DNA of 64,000 bases, taken from NCBI GenBank assembly GCA_050010755.1, contig JBEKKK010000001.1:1216001-1280000 (forward strand), given 5' to 3'. Source of the DNA: Candidatus Bathyarchaeia archaeon. GTDB lineage: Archaea > Thermoproteota > Bathyarchaeia > Bathyarchaeales > Bathycorpusculaceae. Under the pieces are notes generated by a model, which did not search any database, was not told the DNA's origin, and saw nothing but the letters and a program-made list of their open reading frames with translations. Made by a program: the position numbers and the translations under genes. Below are positions 28,058 through 35,676 of the stretch, one piece after another (positions within the stretch are counted from its first letter, which is position 1; every line of letters starts with the position of its first letter).

Positions 28058-29752
28058 ATGAATTATGCGTGGAAGGGACATAGGATGCGTAGAGTTGTTT
28101 TAGTTTCGCTCACAGTTCTTTGTTTGCTTTTCGTATCGTCAATAGCGGGATTGGTTCAGGTAGTTAGGGCTGATATTGGAACCATCTACATTAACGCTGA
28201 TGGAAGCATAAGCCCATCAACTGCTCCCATCTATACCACAGATAGTATCAATTACACTCTAACTGGCAACATTACCACTGATGTTGACGGAATTATGATT
28301 GAGAGGGACAACATCGTTTTTGATGGCGCAGGCTTCACCATCAGTTCTTTTGGGGTCTACCTTGACCAAGTGACTGGCGTGACAATCAAGAACATAAACA
28401 TAATCGGCTATGATTATGGCATCCACCTCCTGTCCTGCTCCAACACTAACATTATTGATAGCAACGTCTCCTCACACGTCCAAACACCTCAAAACCCAGG
28501 AGATGGAATCTACCTTGAAAACAGTTCCAACAATAACGTTGCTGGCAACAACGTTGGACCAAACATGGCAACTGGGATATATGTAGATTCGTCCTCTAAT
28601 AATGATAGCATCATCAACAATAGCCTCGGAAACAACTATGATGACATTTGGCTCAACACCTCCTCTGGAAACATGGTCAGTGGCAACTACGTATGGGGAG
28701 GTGAGAGATTTGGCGTCAAGCTCGCAGATTCATGCAACCACAACGCCATAACGGACAATACCGTGCTTTACAACAATGATGAAGACATAAGCCTAGACAG
28801 TTCGAATTATAACATGTTGTCTGGTAACAACGTAACAGGAGGTAGTGTAGGCATCCATTTAGACAGTTGTATCAGTGACACCCTGCTTAACGACAGAATA
28901 ACAGACACGGCTTATGGTGTCCTCCTTGGGAGTTCCTCCTACAACGCCTTGATTGACAACAACATCACATATTCCAGCGTTAGCGCGATACATCTCGCCC
29001 TTTCCTCCAACAACACGTTGCAAGACAATGACTTGGCAGATAACACCAATGGCATTTATCTAAATCCTTCTTACAACAACACTTTCTGTGGTGGCGAAGT
29101 TTCGAACAACGAGTACGGCGTCCGACTTACGTATGACTCTTCTGGCAACGCATTTTATCGCATGAACTTTGTTAATAATACAATCCAAGCTATTTGCGGC
29201 CAAAATGCAAATGTGTGGGATGATGGTAGGGAAGGTAACTACTGGAGTGATTATAATGGAACTGACAACAATCAGGACGGAATAGGAGATACACCGTACG
29301 TCATTGATGAAACCAACGCAGACCATTATCCTTTGATGGGGGCGTTCTCAGACTTCAACGTTGCACAGGGTGCTGATGTTCAGGTTGTAAGCAATTCAAC
29401 GGTTTCTGATTTCCAGTTCAACAGCACAGCTTTATTGTTCGATGTTACTGGCGAGAATGGCACGACGGGCTTTTGCAGAATAAGCTTTCCAACAGCATTA
29501 ATCAACGGAAACCTAACAGTCTTCGTCAACGGAACAGAAGTACCCTACAATCTTCTGCCAGAGTCTAATAGTACTGAAAGCTATCTCTACTTCACTTACA
29601 GCCACTCAACAAAACAGGTCACAATTATCCCAGAGTTTCCAACATTCATCCTCTTTCCCTTATTTATTATAGCTACGCTAATAGCAATAGTATTTTGCAG
29701 AAAGCCATGTCTTACAAAAGGCTCTAGTCAAGCTGAAACACAGAAATCTTAA
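28058..29752 (+). CDS. Secreted NosD-like beta-helix protein with PEF-CTERM-like C-terminal anchor
   Basis: Beta-helix repeats, GNYWSDYNGTD...DGIGDTPY, C-terminus IIPEFPTFILFPLFIIATLIAIVFCRK. Confidence 0.85.
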   Translation: MNYAWKGHRMRRVVLVSLTVLCLLFVSSIAGLVQVVRADIGTIYINADGSISPSTAPIYTTDSINYTLTGNITTDVDGIMIERDNIVFDGAGFTISSFGVYLDQVTGVTIKNINIIGYDYGIHLLSCSNTNIIDSNVSSHVQTPQNPGDGIYLENSSNNNVAGNNVGPNMATGIYVDSSSNNDSIINNSLGNNYDDIWLNTSSGNMVSGNYVWGGERFGVKLADSCNHNAITDNTVLYNNDEDISLDSSNYNMLSGNNVTGGSVGIHLDSCISDTLLNDRITDTAYGVLLGSSSYNALIDNNITYSSVSAIHLALSSNNTLQDNDLADNTNGIYLNPSYNNTFCGGEVSNNEYGVRLTYDSSGNAFYRMNFVNNTIQAICGQNANVWDDGREGNYWSDYNGTDNNQDGIGDTPYVIDETNADHYPLMGAFSDFNVAQGADVQVVSNSTVSDFQFNSTALLFDVTGENGTTGFCRISFPTALINGNLTVFVNGTEVPYNLLPESNSTESYLYFTYSHSTKQVTIIPEFPTFILFPLFIIATLIAIVFCRKPCLTKGSSQAETQKS

Positions 29753-29855: not shown

Positions 29856-30061
29856 CGCGCGCTGGAAGATTTCTTCACAAACCTCTTAAATGAAAAAGTG
29901 TTGATTTGAAGTTTGGAGAGAGGCGCGCGCGCCATACTTATCAGTTTCCTCTTGACAAGCAGTTTAATGCACGTGCGAGCCCTCGTTCATCTTTTTGGGT
30001 TCTGTTAACTTGTCGGGTCTTAAAGAAGTCTGTTAACTCGCGGGGCTTTTTTGGTATTTTC

Positions 30062-30598
30062 TTATTTCAATGGAGGCAACCTGTCCGATGTCGGGTGTTC
30101 TGCTATGAGTTGGTTTATCTTGCCCAGCCAAGCTTGTCGGTCTTTTAAACCCACTAACCAAAGATCGAAGTTTATTGTTTTCCCCTCTTTTTTCGGTACT
30201 TCAAATCTTATCTCTAAGTGTTTCGCTGCTAACCCTTTCTCTTGGACTGATTTGGCGTATTCTAAAGGTATTGCTAAAACCACATTTTTCTTTTTCCTCA
30301 AACCCTTTCTGTACGACAGAATCAGGTTTTTGTTAGTGAGCGTCAGAGGTTTAGTGGCAACCAATTTTTGGGTTATGTCCGCCATGTTTCCACATTCAGC
30401 TTCTTTGCCATCTTGAGTATACTTTGCAACCTGCAATGACCTCGTGTCCTTTACCAAAAAATGATGTTGCAAATAATCTCCCAAAGGGACTAAACTTAAG
30501 GCAAACGATTTTCCAATGTTTCTCTCAGGTTGAAGAATAACCCCCGCGTTGTCAGCTTTTATTATCGTTCTTTCTTGCGATGAGAACAGATCATCCAT
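30062..30598 (-). CDS. Hypothetical passenger protein with PH/GRAM-like C-terminal half
   Basis: LTLTNKNLIL...IPLEYAKSV...W...I pattern; lies inside the TIRs. Confidence 0.6.
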   Translation of the reverse strand: MDDLFSSQERTIIKADNAGVILQPERNIGKSFALSLVPLGDYLQHHFLVKDTRSLQVAKYTQDGKEAECGNMADITQKLVATKPLTLTNKNLILSYRKGLRKKKNVVLAIPLEYAKSVQEKGLAAKHLEIRFEVPKKEGKTINFDLWLVGLKDRQAWLGKINQLIAEHPTSDRLPPLK

Positions 30599-30684
30599 AA
30601 TAGAAAATGTATGATCGAATTTAAAATCCTTTGGATGGCAAGTTCTGATAGTTCCTAGATTCTCAGGAAAGTTCCTATCCTGCT

Positions 30685-31860
30685 TTAAGAACTCGTTTCA
30701 AACCTTCGATGCTGACTTGCCTTTTTGATTAAGGATATCCATTCTGCCTTGTCAGTTTGAACATTTGCTTTTTGTGCAGGGGTCTTTCCGTTCAGTGCCA
30801 TGTGTAGTCTTATAAAATTGTAATAGATTCTCAGACCATCCATCATTGTCTGTGCCGTTTCCATATCGTCAAGCCCTCTCATAACCTTGTTTCTCTGCCT
30901 AGTCGTTCCGTGCAACCTTTCAACCATATTGTTGTTCGAACGGTCTCTAATGTTTGGAATCCTAACGTGCCGTGTCCTCGGCCCCTTCTGAGTGAAGAAC
31001 TCTTTCGGTATTGCGTCTTGATAGGCTCTTAACCCGTCTGTCACTATTGCCATTGGTCTTGTCTTTGAAAGGCTAGAAGCTTGAGCCAACACTTTCCTAG
31101 CATCTGCAATTTCCCTCTTCTCCGTTATCTGACTCGCCAGCCAAAAACGACTTTCATTGTCAATAACATTCCATGCCCATCTCAAGCTTTCGTGATTGTC
31201 CAAGTCTTTAATGTTCAAGGCCATTTCGTCACTGTGCCAGACTCCGCTAACTCGTGGCACTAGCTGATCGCAGTATTTTTTCATCATTGAAACGTACTTT
31301 CTTATCCACTTTTAAATAGCAACATGGCTAACTTCTACTCCGTAGAACTGTTTTATGTGGTCAACGATTGCTCTCATGCTGATACCTTTGAAATAGAGGT
31401 CAAGCGCAATGGTCACGGTTTCAGGTGTGGCCTTCATCCTCTCGAATCCTTCGTCAACAATGAATTTTCTCTTACAATCGTTGCAGAAGAACCGTTGAAC
31501 CTTTCCGTTCTGAGTAGTTCTGTATCCTCTCTTCACAATGTTCTCGGAGCCACAGAATTTACAAACCGACTCTGGTGATTCTATTTCTTTGCATAGGTTC
31601 TCACCCTCTTCCTCAGAAGGAGATACAGCTTGCTCATTTAACCTAATCTGTTCAACCGCATGAATATGCTTGCAAGCTACATGGTTGAAAACAAAATTGG
31701 GGCACTCGCATTTCCATTCAAGCCCCTCTCTTACAACAATGTAGTGTTTTCCTTCTTCGGTCTGTGACCATACTCGATAGGTTGAATCGCTTATCTTGTC
31801 AACCTTGCCGTGGGCTAGAAGAGAGTACGCACGGAGTTTGTGTGTGTTTGAGGTTCTCAT
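30685..31860 (-). pseudogene. IS6/IS240-type DDE transposase with N-terminal SWIM and Zn-ribbon; one in-frame stop
   Basis: SWIM CECP...CKHI; CKFC...RFFCNDC; W.SDEM, WNVID, IVTDGL.AY, NNMVERLH; TAA at 31312-31314 inside SHVAI*KWIRKY, same frame either side. Confidence 0.88.
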
Positions 31861-31989
31861 TGGTCTACACCTCGGTATATACCAATATACACACTAGTAT
31901 ATAAAAATATCTACACCAATGTATATACTTAGATACAAACCTTAAATATAAGTTAGGTCGATACCATTGTATATGCGCTGGTATGAACT

Positions 31990-32181
31990 ATGGTATTGCA
32001 AGCAGCAACCAAAATAAACAAGGCAACTGGGTCACGGCATACCATTTATTTGAGAACCGAGTTACTCAACGACAGTAAATTTCCTTTCAAAATAGGGCAG
32101 CAATTGATAATTAGAATAGATGGCGATCGGTTGATCGTTGAAGCCAGCAAACCAAAAGAGCGTGATAGAGAAAATGAATAA
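31990..32181 (+). CDS. AbrB/MazE-like small DNA-binding protein
   Basis: HTIYLR.ELL.DS.FPFK.GQ.LIIRIDGDRLIVE swapped-hairpin pattern; divergent from the transposase. Confidence 0.72.
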   Translation: MVLQAATKINKATGSRHTIYLRTELLNDSKFPFKIGQQLIIRIDGDRLIVEASKPKERDRENE

Positions 32182-32190
32182 ACGTCAGCG

Positions 32191-33372
32191 ATGGTTTATT
32201 ACTGTGTCGATTTACCAAGACTGGGGGGACTAAGATTGCTTTCGGGGCCTCACTCTACATACGTTACCAAATTTGAGTCAAGAAAGAACTTCATGCTGCA
32301 TCTAGAGAGCATGATGATTGCTGCACAGGAGAAAGAAGAGGAAGAAGAACTTGAGGAAGAGACACGTGGCCATCCAACAGAATTGAAGACGTATTATATG
32401 GAGACCAACAGCGGTTTGCCAAAAACATTGGAAACATCTCCTCTGAAAGTCTTTCCTATTGCCACGACTCTCTCAGATGTCAATGTACTTCGATTAGAAC
32501 ATGGTAAACATTCAGCAATATTCTACTTGGATGCGGCAGATCCACGTTTCTTGCTGTTATACACGAACGGTGTTGCAACGACAACTGATAGACTTTTCAG
32601 GTATCTTGTTGAAACTCCAGCAAACAGATTTGACAGGATTTGGCTGCCATCAAAGACTCAAGAGAAAATATCGCACTATTCAGGTAATGCTTTTACAGGT
32701 TTTGGTCTATTGTTCGATGACCTTTTCGTTGCCCACGACACAAGGAATGTGCCTATTGGTGAGTTATCAATGAGCGTTTCTGGAGTCAGTTCCTCCAGAG
32801 CTCTTGATGCTCTCAACAGTGATAAGACTTTGAAAAAGGCTGTCTGTTATTCGAAGATACGTGTTGAAAGGGGGAGCGAAGAATCATATGTTGCTGATGA
32901 AATCAAATACAATGGCAGAATAATTACTAAAATTGGACAGTCGATTGACGATCATGTTAGCCTTGTGGAAATCATTAGGAAGGAATACAGAGGTCTGATT
33001 GAAAACATTGAAAGGAACAGTCTGGGCACGAAAGAGGTTGAAGGAAGAACGCTTGTTGAAGGAGAGGCGTTTGAACTTGAACTGAATCGAGAAATTCTAG
33101 ACTTGGACAGATTCGCGGAACGACTCGCAGATGGTGATAGACCGTTCAGATTATGGGGAATGGTAAACAACATTTCAAGAGATATGCGCCAAGTCATCGG
33201 ATTAGATTTGCATACTGGTGACTCTATCAATCTTGAAATCATGCCCTCTCTAATTAGAGTCTATATTCCCAGAGGCGGTTGTGGCAACACTGTTTTGAGG
33301 CTCTGGGTGAATCTTCAACATAGTTTTGACTCAGAAGTAAAACTCAATGAGGAGACCGATTTTGCAGCCTAG
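32191..33372 (+). CDS. Uncharacterised 393-aa passenger protein
   Basis: Long ORF; conserved-looking C-terminus PFRLWG...DLHTGD.I.LEI...IRVYIP.GGCGNTVLRL..NLQH. Confidence 0.8.
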   Translation: MVYYCVDLPRLGGLRLLSGPHSTYVTKFESRKNFMLHLESMMIAAQEKEEEEELEEETRGHPTELKTYYMETNSGLPKTLETSPLKVFPIATTLSDVNVLRLEHGKHSAIFYLDAADPRFLLLYTNGVATTTDRLFRYLVETPANRFDRIWLPSKTQEKISHYSGNAFTGFGLLFDDLFVAHDTRNVPIGELSMSVSGVSSSRALDALNSDKTLKKAVCYSKIRVERGSEESYVADEIKYNGRIITKIGQSIDDHVSLVEIIRKEYRGLIENIERNSLGTKEVEGRTLVEGEAFELELNREILDLDRFAERLADGDRPFRLWGMVNNISRDMRQVIGLDLHTGDSINLEIMPSLIRVYIPRGGCGNTVLRLWVNLQHSFDSEVKLNEETDFAA

Positions 33373-34240
33373 TTTACATACCAAACTCATGAATTGCATA
33401 ATCGGAATGTGTAAGAGAGATAAGAAATGGATTACAGTTTTGCGTGAACTTGGCTACCAACCATATCTGATCGAACAGAGTATTAGGACATCAAGTGGTT
33501 CAAAAGTCAAAACGGACATAATTGCATCATCCGCACAATTGATACACTCTCTTGTTTTTGAAGTTAAAGGCGGGATTACTATTCAACAGGATCAACTAGA
33601 GAGATATGCTATGATTGATCCAGAAGATTTGTACAGATGGGTAGCACTTCCCGCGTTCACACGTCAAACTTTTCGATTCGACTGGTGCATAAGTGATTGG
33701 GAAGAAAATCACCCAATAATTGCGGCCTTGGTCAAAGATGTTCCAATCATTACTTTCGGCACAGAGCATATTGAAAAAACTGGCCAATTCCACAATCCTC
33801 GGCTTAACAGCGTGTTTAATCAACCGATTAGTCTAATTGGCAAATCGGCACCTACGCTATACTATCCTTTCAGTGAATATGACCCGCAAGCCTACATTGC
33901 GCGTTTTGTCATTCAAGGTTTGCTCCAAGTTGCATCTAAGAAACCAAGGAACGAAATCAGCGTTTTTGACGAAAATCTAATCACACGGGACGAAATACTG
34001 AAGTATATCTTTAATCCTGTTTTTGATGCCTTGTCAAAAGACCATCAGGGACATTTGAAGGATAAGATCAAAGAAGTGGTTCGCTGGATTATGGCAGATC
34101 AGAAGATGAAAGAGGCTTTTGGTTCGATTGAACAACGAGGCGGTTATAAGCTTAAACGACCTCTTGACAAACTCCGAAAGGCATCAAACCAATTTTTGGC
34201 TAACCTAGAAACCCAAGGAAAATTGGATACATTTCTCTAA
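33347..34240 (+). CDS. Predicted PD-(D/E)XK nuclease-domain protein
   Basis: KTDIIASS...LVFEVKGG...QQDQLERY (D...ExK...QxxRY); overlaps the upstream gene. Confidence 0.7.
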   Translation: MRRPILQPSLHTKLMNCIIGMCKRDKKWITVLRELGYQPYLIEQSIRTSSGSKVKTDIIASSAQLIHSLVFEVKGGITIQQDQLERYAMIDPEDLYRWVALPAFTRQTFRFDWCISDWEENHPIIAALVKDVPIITFGTEHIEKTGQFHNPRLNSVFNQPISLIGKSAPTLYYPFSEYDPQAYIARFVIQGLLQVASKKPRNEISVFDENLITRDEILKYIFNPVFDALSKDHQGHLKDKIKEVVRWIMADQKMKEAFGSIEQRGGYKLKRPLDKLRKASNQFLANLETQGKLDTFL

Positions 34241-34394
34241 AAATCCACCCACCAACAAAAAGCCCCTTTGGTTAACATGAACACTTTCAAGCCCATGAAA
34301 GACCCGAAGAGTTAACAGAATCTCTTTTTGAAACCTTTATTAGCATGATAACCTGGAAAAATAAATCGCAAACATAATTCAGAAACGCGTTGGC

Positions 34395-35119: not shown

Positions 35120-35676
35120 TTGACTTTGGGCAAGGCGGACATGGTTCTGAAGGGAATTGAGGCAATAGCCGAAAAAGAGTCCCTGCCAATAATAGGACGA
35201 GACAGGGGACAAGTTCTCATCAAAGTCATACGCCAAACAAGACCCAGAAGGATACTTGAAATCGGAACCTTGGTTGGTTACTCAACGATTAAGATGGCAA
35301 AAGAACTTGACGCAAAGGCGTGTTTGACTACGATTGAAACCCACTCTGGTAGAGCCAAACTGGCACGCGAAAACATAGAAAAAGCAGATGTTCGCCCAAA
35401 AATAGACGTGATCGTAGGCGACGCCATCAAAGTCATTCCGAAGCTGACTGAAAATTCCACATAGTCTTCATCGACGCTGCCAAGGAAGAATATTTCGACT
35501 ATCTGAAGATGGTCGAAAAAAAGCTCCACAAGGGAAGCGTAATCGTCGCGGACAACGTTGGAGTCTTGACAGATCAAATGAAAGAATATCTAGACTACGT
35601 AAGGTCATCACGCAATTACAAGAGCGAATACATACCCTTCGGAAAAGACGGAGTCGAAGTAAGCGTAAAGCTATAG
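35120..35676 (+). pseudogene. Class I SAM-dependent O-methyltransferase, frameshifted
   Basis: ILEIGTLVGYS; frame breaks at the A-run near 35451 and resumes IVFIDAAKEEY...VIVADNV...DGVEVSVKL* (TAG 35674-35676). Confidence 0.8.

Follow-up and report, generated by a model that had tools for sequence, protein, structure and literature searches.

The window, by which we mean the whole 64-kb stretch of DNA that was analysed, contains at 29998-34322 a genuine mobile element of the IS6 family, 4,325 bp long and with four passenger genes (Table 1). An earlier reading made from the sequence alone (the sequence-only reading) had proposed that one transposase is flanked on both sides by cargo within a single unit, and this is what we found. 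Its count of five genes also holds, provided that the interrupted transposase gene is counted as one. That reading called the element complete. The inverted repeats, the target-site duplication and the cargo are indeed present, but the element is not intact, as its transposase gene has a nonsense codon.

Table 1. Features of the element and its insertion site, by position in the window
Feature	Position	Strand	Details	Basis
Target-site duplication (TSD), left copy	29990..29997	.	TCTTTTTG, 8 bp; same as 34323-34330	read from sequence
Terminal inverted repeat (TIR), left (downstream-of-transposase) end	29998..30021	+	21/24 against right end	
Subterminal repeat of terminal motif	30029..30051	+	TGTTAAC-N4-GGGGCTTT	repeat search; conserved in relatives
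Passenger ORF, 178 aa	30062..30598	-		ORF list
IS6-family transposase frame	30685..31860	-	391 codons, one stop inside	ORF list, Pfam, NCBIfam, alignment
Transposase domains	DDE ~30817-31239; zinc ribbon ~31459-31563; SWIM ~31651-31722	-	HTH also present	Pfam, NCBIfam, alignment
In-frame TAA	31312..31314	-	splits transposase into 182-aa and 200-aa ORFs	sequence, ORFs, alignment
Divergent control region	31861..31989	.	three copies of ~19-nt motif TCTACACC-N3-GTATATAC at 31864, 31910, 31958	repeat search
63-aa ORF divergent from transposase	31990..32181	+	weak AbrB/MazE-like candidate	homologues in same position
Passenger ORF, 393 aa, MJECL33-like (PF25924)	32191..33372	+	probable start 32236	precomputed annotation
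Passenger ORF, 297 aa, MJECL32-like (PF27326)	33347..34240	+	probable start 33362; putative N-terminal PD-(D/E)xK nuclease-like domain	precomputed annotation, AF2
Subterminal repeat, upstream-of-transposase end	34257..34277	-		repeat search, comparison with relatives
TIR, right end	34299..34322	-		sequence reading, repeat search
TSD, right copy	34323..34330	.	TCTTTTTG	read from sequence
Host BRE/TATA-like box (insertion target, outside element)	34331..34343	+	AAACCTTTATTAG, right after TSD; presumed DUF1847 promoter (ATG 34395)	sequence, flank survey

The 24-nt terminal inverted repeats are GGTTCTGTTAACTTGTCGGGTCTT on the left and, reverse-complemented, GATTCTGTTAACTCTTCGGGTCTT on the right. 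Their identity at 21 of 24 positions is as first reported, and the pair ranks first among 221 inverted pairs in a repeat search of the window (22 nt, 91%). The perfect 8-bp duplication was likewise correctly read; such a match has a chance of 1 in 65,536 per pair. A second, internal inverted motif had also been noticed, and the repeat search found it at both ends (30031-30051 and 34257-34277, 81% identity), which makes the ends bipartite. The upstream and downstream ends differ in architecture, and the same two types occur in relatives. End sites co-vary within elements: in the related loci L008 and L015, all four sites are changed to a GGCGCT variant of the end motif.

By itself, the 13-nt tip of the repeats is common, with three matches in the window at up to two mismatches against 1.44 expected, a number reached by 14 of 100 shuffles. 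Therefore, the case for an element rests on other features, namely that the repeats are inverted, that a perfect 8-mer stands on either side, that an IS6 transposase lies inside and that relatives have the same end architecture. The left boundary is placed independently, since in sequencing run X6 a contig begins to match the window at exactly 29998 and has a different upstream flank. An empty site with a single TCTTTTTG, suggested in the sequence-only reading as a check, was looked for and not found for the present copy.

By sequence, the transposase belongs to the IS6 family, in agreement with the original affiliation. Its best Pfam match is DDE_Tnp_IS240 (PF13610; 58.2 bits, cut-off 27). 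The best NCBIfam match is transpos_IS6, which is aligned over model positions 1-202 of 202 at 120.8 bits, just below the cut-off of 125; intact relatives score 106.6-138 bits, and four of these five, like the window protein, fall narrowly under the cut-off. The 8-bp duplication and the GG...cTGTt tip fit the same family, and D211, D275 and E314 are invariant columns in the alignment of relatives. The SWIM extension of the transposase also stood up to analysis: the domain scores above the Pfam cut-off (23.0 against 19.6), and its CxC...CxH residues are invariant in six transposases of 38-87% identity. The closest annotated plasmid matches are all IS6 transposases (24-32% identity). None of these matches covers the SWIM region, none of the 27 records covers at least 80% of the query, and the clostridial ones align from residue ~100. 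A unit transposon of the Tn3 family (~1,000-aa TnpA, ~38-bp inverted repeats, 5-bp TSD, resolvase with res site) was rejected, given the IS6-type 391-codon frame, the 8-bp TSD and the lack of a recombinase among the ORFs.

The 63-aa ORF has homologues of 57-73% identity in the same position in L008, L009, L012 and L015, and the ~19-nt motifs of the control region are conserved in these four loci. Its product had been called an AbrB-like regulator. The conserved position and the conserved operator-like repeats favour such a role, but the family match is weak: MazE_antitoxin was found in two of five homologues with an E-value of 0.047, below the cut-off, and a PDB profile search returned no AbrB/MazE chain. 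Judging by these sequence patterns, the small gene and the three repeats probably control the transposase.

The 178-aa ORF has relatives in 38 representative clusters (E<=0.001) and matched no Pfam, NCBIfam or PADLOC family. Its longer relatives give only sub-threshold matches, to a bacterial PH-domain. The two remaining passengers were assigned by precomputed annotation to the MJECL33 and MJECL32 families (Pfam 38.1), for which there is no function on record; a literature search found no papers that mention either name. The names come from numbered neighbours on the extrachromosomal element of Methanocaldococcus jannaschii.

The AF2 model of the MJECL33-like protein (pLDDT 85) has weak fold matches only, to RdgC, CENP-L/Iml3 and RnlA (Z<=7.2). 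For the MJECL32-like protein (pLDDT 87.5), 19 of the top 20 VIA rows span residues 1 to ~160, and most are restriction-type or related nucleases with Z 5.7-8.0; the matches include SdaI, AF2093, AF1548, BsmI, XisH-like, NucS, Bax1, FokI and HamA. Foldseek matches are weak (E>=0.0076). E38, D52 and K69 are invariant, and position 67 has a consensus E that is not invariant. The predicted complex of the two proteins has an ipSAE of 0.91, compared with 0.00 for the best control; the mark applied is attained by 116 of 157 solved complexes and by 2 of 215 mismatched pairs. At least 92% of contacts agree between runs, and partner pLDDT is at least 87. The models suggest that the two genes form a module whose products would bind each other.

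Collecting relatives and comparing their cargo, also proposed in the sequence-only reading, was informative. We delimited 45 elements by TIR and perfect TSD, of which one is the present element, one lies in the same genome (C5:38026-41954, TSD CGCTCGCA) and the rest are in metagenome-assembled genomes (MAGs) of Bathyarchaeia, a major uncultured lineage of sediment and peat. One additional element with a perfect 8-bp TSD is from a Thaumarchaeota MAG; with this one included, perfect 8-bp repeats flank 45 elements besides the present one. Elements with their own perfect 8-bp TSD number six among the first set of relative loci and 27 in 26 of the 40 surveyed loci, a relaxed search gave three more, and the 24 transposase matches of a second set gave seven with ends and a perfect TSD. 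Some of these elements (L057/L067; L009/L010) are probably orthologous and not independent. Sizes of the 45 range from 2,426 to 7,477 bp; there is also a doubtful pair of 9,265 bp, which has another element inside it. No element is as small as a bare IS. Of the 401 genomes in the class, 82 have the family transposase (E<=1e-20).

The element in L008 lies at a different site (TSD CCATTTTC) and has the same small, MJECL33-like and MJECL32-like genes (73, 79 and 78% identity, respectively) with different cargo on the other side. Given that this three-gene block beside the transposase gene recurs at another site, the cargo moves with the element. The cargo of relatives consists largely of restriction-modification, PIN/NYN/ParE-type and unknown genes. 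However, 80 of 98 surveyed cargo ORFs are without a Pfam family, and thus the label “defence cargo” fits a minority. The clade is large, apparently uncatalogued and made up of members that nearly always bear cargo, and in Bathyarchaeia it appears to transport modules of restriction-modification and nuclease genes.

IS6 elements are the textbook example of a minimal insertion sequence, and they move cargo only when acting in pairs. Like IS26, IS257 and IS240, the present element has an IS240/IS6-type DDE transposase with HTH and an 8-bp target duplication, and arrays occur in both groups. Its short terminal repeats (GGTTCTGTT / GATTCTGTT) also have the GG tips and cTGTt described in the 2021 IS6 review. 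The review gives an internal “caaa” motif as strongly, although not fully, conserved, whereas the repeat here is GGTTCTGTTAACTTGTCGGG, without “caaa”; some relatives have GGTTCTGTTGCG. Typical IS6 elements are about 0.7-0.9 kb long with a single ORF, those of clades h and i reaching 1.76 kb. By contrast, 4,325 bp with five ORFs lie within one pair of repeats here (2.4-7.5 kb in the family), while typical IS6 elements move cargo only as pseudo-compound transposons. The bipartite ends of ~50-80 bp and an NCBIfam score at or just under the cut-off are further differences.

Four non-transposase ORFs lie inside the inverted repeats, and the same block lies inside those of L008, as expected of a transporter IS (tIS) in ISfinder usage. 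In the available portion of the review, ISDsp3 of Dehalococcoides, a single-copy element, is the only entry of the IS6 family to which a passenger gene is ascribed. Compared by description only, ISDsp3 resembles the present element in having an IS6-family transposase and non-transposase cargo within its repeats, but it has one passenger gene and occurs in a bacterium, whereas the present clade has up to several genes, on both sides. As cargo is the rule here, the comparison with that portion of the review supports the initial suggestion of a poorly described archaeal class. IS6 clades h and i, mostly from Clostridia, have zinc-finger-extended transposases, and the review describes a further N-terminal domain in clade i. 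They share with our transposase an N-terminal CxxC zinc-finger extension ahead of the HTH, but are bacterial IS of 1.2-1.8 kb without cargo.

We consider it very likely that 29998-34322 is a unit cargo transposon (“transporter IS”) belonging to a divergent clade of the IS6 family, one that is common in Bathyarchaeia. A clade in which one IS6-type transposase has multi-gene cargo inside its own ends widens the capability of the IS6 family. In such a transposon, one SWIM/zinc-ribbon/HTH/DDE transposase would bind two copies of TGTTAAC-N4-GGGKCTT per end, one terminal and one subterminal, the latter being the presumed second binding site. The whole 4.3-kb unit would have been inserted by an 8-bp staggered cut, perhaps with replicative cointegrate chemistry. 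It inserted 5 nt ahead of the TATA-like box of the DUF1847 gene without disrupting the core promoter, and a later Tyr/Phe-to-TAA change split the transposase.

The family typically inserts just upstream of gene promoters and in a fixed register, with 5 nt separating the TSD from the TATA-like box of the downstream host gene. A box related to that of the DUF1847 gene also precedes its G025 orthologue. The word TTWAWW was picked after the flanks were seen. Counted from the end of the element, it begins at offset 14 or 15 in 14 of the 56 non-abutting flanks, compared with ~0.25 expected (binomial P 5e-21), and in only 2 of 12 non-abutting flanks of the second set. The genome-wide TATA peak is 36-55 nt before ATGs. 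For 15 of 16 elements in register, an ORF starts 26-185 nt further out; among the products of these ORFs are TBP, thermosome, proteasome, RpoB, L38e and LSm. In addition, 14 of 70 flanks have another family end at a distance of exactly 8 bp, and repeated insertions lead to arrays with one shared 8-bp spacer.

The register could mean that the transposase prefers a pseudo-end or the A/T-rich word cAAnnTTTAWW in the DNA itself and does not recognise a promoter complex, with arrays arising by attraction to resident family ends, as of IS26 to IS26. We give this explanation a little less than an even chance. It is favoured by the flanks that abut other ends, by a loose resemblance of the repeat core TGTTAAC to the flank word GTTTATA, and by the IS26 arrays and targeted events described in the IS6 review. 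However, the registers of the repeat core and the TATA word are ~2 nt apart, repeated hits on one promoter account for arrays without attraction to ends, and the genes downstream of the target in the 15 cases are real. Moreover, in elements with one abutting flank, the other flank scores at least 8 in the TATA register in 7 of 8 cases, on a consensus score built from the same 35 elements on which it was counted; the eighth has TTWAWW one nucleotide off.

More tentatively, and with some doubt, we propose that the SWIM/zinc-finger N-terminus might read TBP/TFB bent on BRE/TATA, the pre-initiation complex of archaea, or the DNA signature of that complex, and that this would direct integration to the upstream edge of strong promoters. 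Among eukaryotic elements, Ty3 integrates at TFIIIB/TBP-bound Pol III starts and Tf1 at Pol II promoters. They resemble the present family in that they insert at a short, constant distance from a promoter element of the TBP type, hit the same promoters repeatedly and leave the host gene intact (“safe haven”). However, they are LTR retroelements whose integrases are tethered by known host factors, whereas the present element is an archaeal DDE DNA transposon. If true, promoter reading would give Ty3-type promoter homing a counterpart among prokaryotic DNA transposons, and promoter-proximal stacks of cargo elements, many of restriction-modification or toxin type, would build up before housekeeping genes such as those for proteasome, thermosome, TBP and RNA polymerase. 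If the fixed register near TATA boxes has a mechanistic basis, this would be archaeal DNA transposition directed to promoters, which is rare. The TATA-proximal register is also a practical rule for locating such elements and stacks in MAGs.

The column of the transposase stop has Y in four and F in one of the five aligned relatives. Because a change from Tyr or Phe to TAA cuts the transposase in two, we regard the present copy as most likely a fixed relic that is non-autonomous. The contigs that span 31312-31314 in runs X5 and X6 show no difference there. The stop is therefore present in other sequencing runs too, and the copy is probably immobile on its own; the genome has only one full copy. 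It is quite improbable that the stop is tolerated or functional, such that the element makes two proteins, one of 182 aa that binds DNA (SWIM, zinc ribbon, HTH) and one of 200 aa that is catalytic, or that the TAA is read through, with the element still mobile. An ATG does occur 8 codons past the stop, the two halves are both open, a near-identical left end exists at another site in run X6, and split or truncated transposase products serve as regulators in other IS families. However, the sense codon in all five relatives means that the split is not a conserved design, and TAA terminates neighbouring genes of the same element. The break also falls in the middle of an HTH helix, within the conserved VAIYKWIRKY stretch, and single stops, typical of decay, are found in other family copies too.

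It is more improbable still that there is no unit transposon, and that an IS and unrelated island genes lie, by chance or as a composite, between two solo IS ends that differ in origin: the same genome does contain solo ends of the family as well as a deletion derivative bounded by TIRs, and the single copy would fit, but the 8-bp duplication is perfect, the “upstream” and “downstream” ends are distinct as in relatives, L008 has the same transposase-plus-cargo block within its own TIRs and TSD elsewhere, and the same plan is seen in 45 delimited elements. The GC content of the element is 41.3%, compared with 47.7% for the genome.

By its transposase, target-site duplication (TSD) and inverted-repeat tips, the window element belongs to the IS6 family, but it departs from the definition of that family in size, gene content and bipartite ends. 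The sequence-only reading had described inverted ends with a perfect TSD and a second internal inverted motif, and the sequence agrees (see table). The terminal repeats rank first among 221 inverted pairs in a repeat search of the window, and the inner pair occurs in the same list. The 13-nt tip has three matches in the window at no more than 2 mismatches, against 1.44 expected, and by itself is not statistically rare. The case therefore consists of the inverted tips, the perfect flanking 8-mer, the internal IS6 transposase and the relatives. A contig from another sequencing run (X6) carries the window sequence starting exactly at 29998, with other sequence upstream, which fixes the left boundary independently. 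Contigs of run X4 span the left junction, and contigs of X4 and X5 span the right junction.

Features of the window element and TSD-flanked relatives (coordinates without a contig or locus name are window positions)
Feature	Position	Strand	Length	Sequence or remark
Left terminal inverted repeat (TIR)	29998-30021		24 nt	GGTTCTGTTAACTTGTCGGGTCTT; direct sequence reading
Right TIR	34299-34322		24 nt	reverse complement GATTCTGTTAACTCTTCGGGTCTT; 21/24 identical to left end
TSD	29990-29997 and 34323-34330		8 bp	TCTTTTTG immediately outside each end
Inner inverted pair	30031-30051 / 34257-34277			repeat search
178-aa ORF	30062-30598	minus	178 aa
Transposase frame	30685-31860	minus
63-aa ORF	31990-32181	plus	63 aa
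393-aa ORF	32191-33372	plus	393 aa	MJECL33-like
297-aa ORF	33347-34240	plus	297 aa	MJECL32-like; 26-nt overlap with 393-aa ORF
L008 element			5,807 bp	TSD CCATTTTC
L009 element			6,570 bp	TSD TGATAAAG
L011 element			5,818 bp	TSD CTGAAAAA
L012 element			5,819 bp	TSD GGTATTCC
L015 element			3,979 bp	TSD TTGTTTAG
L010 middle element			4,147 bp	TSD CTTTATCA
Second element of this genome	C5:38026-41954 (L037 2026-5954)		3,929 bp	TSD CGCTCGCA
Family element of a Thaumarchaeota MAG	L017 1054-3412		2,359 bp	TSD GGATTGAA

The ORF map bears out the five genes proposed earlier, counting the interrupted transposase frame as one. The transposase matches the Pfam family DDE_Tnp_IS240 (1.3e-15, 58.2 bits), and NCBIfam transpos_IS6 is matched over the full model length at 120.8 bits, under its cut-off of 125. 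The proposed SWIM extension scores 23.0 bits against a cut-off of 19.6, and an IS1/IS1595-type zinc ribbon lies at residues 100-134. Six transposases of 38-87% identity share an invariant SWIM CxC...CxH, two CxxC pairs, D211, D275 and E314.

The element had been called complete, which holds for its ends, TSD and gene set, but not for its transposase. A single in-frame TAA (31312-31314) lies within the conserved VAI-Y-KWIRKY, at a column where relatives have Y (four) or F (one). An assembly slip is ruled out by contigs of X5 (31273-31549) and X6 (31267-31536), which cover the region without difference; one X4 contig extends to the stop codon only at its extreme end. Because the stop codon is real, this genome has no second copy of the element, and the one other intact family transposase it encodes has 38% identity and different ends, we read the window copy as a non-autonomous relic.

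Three copies of TCTACACC-N3-GTATATAC lie between the 63-aa gene and the transposase gene, and this control-region motif is conserved in L008, L009, L012 and L015. The position and the conserved repeats agree with the suggestion of an AbrB-like regulator, whereas the MazE/AbrB signal of the 63-aa protein is weak (E 0.047); for this reason we infer a regulatory role from position and conservation, and not from family membership.

In close relatives, each end has two motif copies, a terminal cTGTTAAC-N4-GGGtCTT and a subterminal TGTTAAC-N4-GGGGCTTT. They are ~28 nt apart in the end that lies downstream of the transposase and ~44 nt apart in the upstream one, except in L011, where both ends are similar. 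GGCGCT replaces GGGKCT in all four copies of both L008 and L015, a sequence pattern that would be expected for binding sites co-evolving with their own transposase. The transposase may bind the end repeats.

A scan of species genomes gave 12 loci with related transposases. Eight are in Bathyarchaeia/Bathyarchaeota MAGs (76-88% identity to the catalytic half) and four in Thaumarchaeota/Nitrosotalea MAGs (34-42%). Six elements in these loci, L008 to L015 in the table, are each bounded by family-type TIRs and a perfect 8-bp TSD of their own. The family transposase is present in 82 of 401 sampled genomes of the class (E ≤1e-20). For a survey we took 40 of the best full-length transposase hits, extended on either side by ~9 kb or as far as the contig reached, and delimited elements with a script whose only requirements were an 8-mer repeat and a pair of GGTTCTG-type TIRs matching at 15/24 or more. 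This yielded 27 elements in 26 loci, of 2,689-7,477 bp, all with a TSD of 8/8. The other 14 loci have no strict pair, and three of them reach a contig edge. A relaxed search of these 14 gave three more elements with perfect TSDs (2,426, 2,901 and 4,084 bp) and no bare (~1.4 kb) family member; the shortest TIR pair there spans 2,272 bp, without a TSD. In a second set, 20 loci with more distant transposases, ends were found for only 7 of 24 hits (2,570-3,841 bp, plus one doubtful 9,265-bp pair). As the transposase gene is ~1.15 kb, every delimited element has at least ~1 kb of other DNA. Collecting relatives by TIR and transposase and comparing their cargo, the check that had been proposed, thus recovered TIR- and TSD-bounded cargo elements: the family exists, and cargo is the rule among its members.

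The L008 element has homologues of the 63-, 393- and 297-aa ORFs (73, 79 and 78% identity), in the same order beside the transposase gene and enclosed by its own TIRs; its insertion site is unrelated to that of the window element. Beyond the transposase gene, a methylase-Mrr fusion and a 180-aa ORF take the place of the 178-aa ORF of the window element. Judged from these comparisons, cargo travels with the element. Among the cargo ORFs, 8 of 24 from the first set and 18 of 98 from the survey have Pfam matches. The matches include restriction-modification-type families (N6_N4 and N6 methylases, Eco57I/MmeI-type fusions, RE_BsaWI, RE_AlwI and Methylase_S) as well as PIN, NYN, ParE, SocA/Panacea, EVE, GNAT, proteasome-like Ntn and zf-AN1. 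PADLOC matches, found in 11 of 89 cargo ORFs, are mainly restriction-modification parts. A methylase or restriction domain occurs in 10 of the first 35 elements; the majority of the cargo has no name, and functions assigned to the cargo are putative. Cargo ORFs of 278-295 aa in L049, L068 and L071 have partial Proteasome (Ntn-hydrolase) Pfam matches.

For the four passenger ORFs of the window element, PADLOC, NCBIfam and a local Pfam set without PF25924 and PF27326 gave nothing save a sub-threshold DUF6840, and PDB sequence searches with the cargo proteins gave no useful match. Precomputed Pfam 38.1 labels identify the 393-aa protein as PF25924 (MJECL33) and the 297-aa protein as PF27326 (MJECL32), families that are both present in archaea and bacteria; a literature search found no paper mentioning MJECL32 or MJECL33, and no printed function for either. 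Both proteins have confident AlphaFold models (pLDDT 85 at 393 aa, 87.5 at 297 aa). With the 297-aa model, 19 of the top 20 VIA rows span residues 1 to ~160 (Z 5.7-8.0), and most matches are restriction-type or related nucleases (SdaI, AF1548, BsmI, NucS, Bax1, FokI and HamA). E38, D52 and K69 are invariant. The 393-aa model has no fold match at Z ≥8, only weak ones (Z ≤7.2) to RdgC, CENP-L/Iml3, RnlA and KA1/TBP-like units. A predicted complex of the two proteins scores 0.91, versus 0.00 for the best control; of 157 solved complexes, 116 attain the mark for this score, as do 2 of 215 mismatched pairs. Agreement between runs is at least 92% of contacts, and partner pLDDT is at least 87. The modelling supports binding of the two proteins to each other, and the pair could comprise a nuclease and its partner subunit, perhaps serving in defence or maintenance.

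We read the flanks of the first 35 elements outward from the ends, with offsets 1-8 being the TSD. Many flanks continue beyond the TSD with cAAnn, then TTTAWWW. The generic TATA core TTWAWW, a word chosen with the flanks already in view, begins at offset 14 in 12 of the 56 non-abutting flanks and at offset 15 in three (14 flanks in total), against a background of 0.12 per offset (binomial P 5e-21). At the other offsets from 1 to 74 it never occurs in more than two flanks. The right flank of the window element reads TCTTTTTG and then AAACCTTTATTAG, with the ATG of the host DUF1847 gene at offset 73. In 15 of the 16 elements with a core at offsets 13-16, an ORF of at least 60 aa begins 26-185 nt further out. 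The Pfam families of these and four other flank ORFs are TBP (2), thermosome (2), proteasome subunit (4), RNA polymerase B, L38e, S17e (2), LSm, SSB-like OB protein, radical SAM (2) and LigB; one ORF has no family. The elements ahead of host proteasome genes are L009, L037, L068 and L070. In this genome, TTWAWW peaks 36-55 nt ahead of the first ATG (1,071 long ORFs), which fits the element-flank distances. Same-genus genomes without the C5 insertion retain a TTAATTAA box ahead of the proteasome gene, so the box is a host feature. Differing TSDs and TIRs argue for independent hits at the proteasome, thermosome and TBP genes, although L057/L067 and L009/L010 may be orthologous rather than independent.

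Elements that had played no part in spotting this pattern served as a check. Each of the three from the relaxed search has the core at offset 14 or 15 on one flank or both, and one of them also abuts another end. The L017 element has TTTATT at offset 14 on one side and another family end 8 bp off on the other, so the same insertion behaviour occurs outside Bathyarchaeia. The second set has the core in only 2 of 12 non-abutting flanks, versus ~0.05 expected, and two further flanks abut. The rule thus holds strongly for elements close to the subfamily of the window element, and with greater distance it becomes weaker or less easily seen. A bias in orientation towards the promoter is suggestive only: the counts are 11 to 5 with TTWAWW and 14 to 4 with a TATA score that was built and counted on the same data. 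The target might be recognized as a DNA word or through the TBP/TFB complex. In L043, L044 and L045, which belong to one TIR subgroup, G/C-rich palindromic repeats such as ACCCCCCCAGGGGGTGGGGGGG lie right after the TSD on the flank downstream of the transposase, with no TATA box; these repeats could represent a further type of target or some other repeat element.

Another family-type end lies exactly 8 bp away in 14 of 70 flanks, and the shared spacer is identical to the TSD. Examples are L052 and L010 (three elements each), L050 (both sides) and the C5 element with a 737-bp remnant. Such arrays could arise by attraction to resident family ends, as is known for IS26. The simplest account is that each newcomer would hit the same 8 bp before the same promoter and displace older copies outward. 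Transposition itself presumably proceeds through cointegrates. Of the eight elements that abut another on one side only, seven score at least 8 in the TATA register on the opposite side, and the eighth has TTWAWW one nt off.

The sequence-only reading had also called for an empty site with a single TCTTTTTG, which was not found in 60 relatives, in the relative G025, in runs X4-X7 or by a metagenome word search. The flank DNA gives no syntenic site in the 60 relatives. The DUF1847 orthologue has 42-44% identity in three same-genus genomes and 65% in G025, and was not found in the same-genus genome G001. The right flank can be aligned to G025 starting at the TSD, but the left flank cannot (score 26, below the shuffle mean of 30). 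The exact 28-nt word of left flank plus TSD occurs in one metagenome contig, where the site is occupied, and no contig of X4-X7 joins across the element. The left neighbour (28058-29752) encodes a 564-aa NosD/beta-helix surface-type protein. Paralogue-like DNA matches to parts of this gene occur at other places in this genome and also in relatives; the left flank is therefore a variable region, and the synteny-based searches failed for that reason.

The C5 element has an intact 375-aa transposase with NYN and GNAT cargo, and lies directly upstream of the TATA box of a proteasome-subunit gene, with the family remnant 8 bp away. Four same-genus genomes have neither element nor remnant. In all four, homology covers the proteasome gene, the TATA box and the 8-mer (in two, its first five bases only), and no family end follows the 8-mer. 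Their next 814 bp are unrelated to the remnant, and we therefore rejected the site as a clean empty site.

In a 2021 review, IS6 members are mostly 0.7-0.9 kb and archaeal ones 700-750 bp, clades h and i have zinc-finger extensions, and ISDsp3 is the single member with one passenger gene (PMC7986276). A 2019 survey of thaumarchaeal mobile elements describes IS-like transposons of one or two genes (PMC6563490). The open literature, with ISfinder and subscription journals outside the search, yielded no description of IS6 with cargo in Thaumarchaeota or Bathyarchaeia, in keeping with the proposed poorly described archaeal class. Among the papers on promoter-directed archaeal IS, the one consulted does not describe the promoter-register rule, and we consider this target site a new finding.

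Other family traces occur in this genome. A 1,237-bp segment between family TIRs (C1:550981-552217; L005 1501-2737) retains just the final 79 codons of a transposase beside a 253-aa HTH-plus-membrane ORF; as it has no TSD, it looks like a deletion derivative. Solo family-type ends with no transposase nearby lie at C1:255246, C1:636776, C2:161325 and C4:~30891-30948, with 4-5 mismatches to the 24-nt TIR and, in some, a subterminal repeat. Beyond the element, at window 35120-35676, consecutive 114- and 55-aa ORFs resemble, by eye only, the halves of an O-methyltransferase, and are possibly a frameshifted gene.
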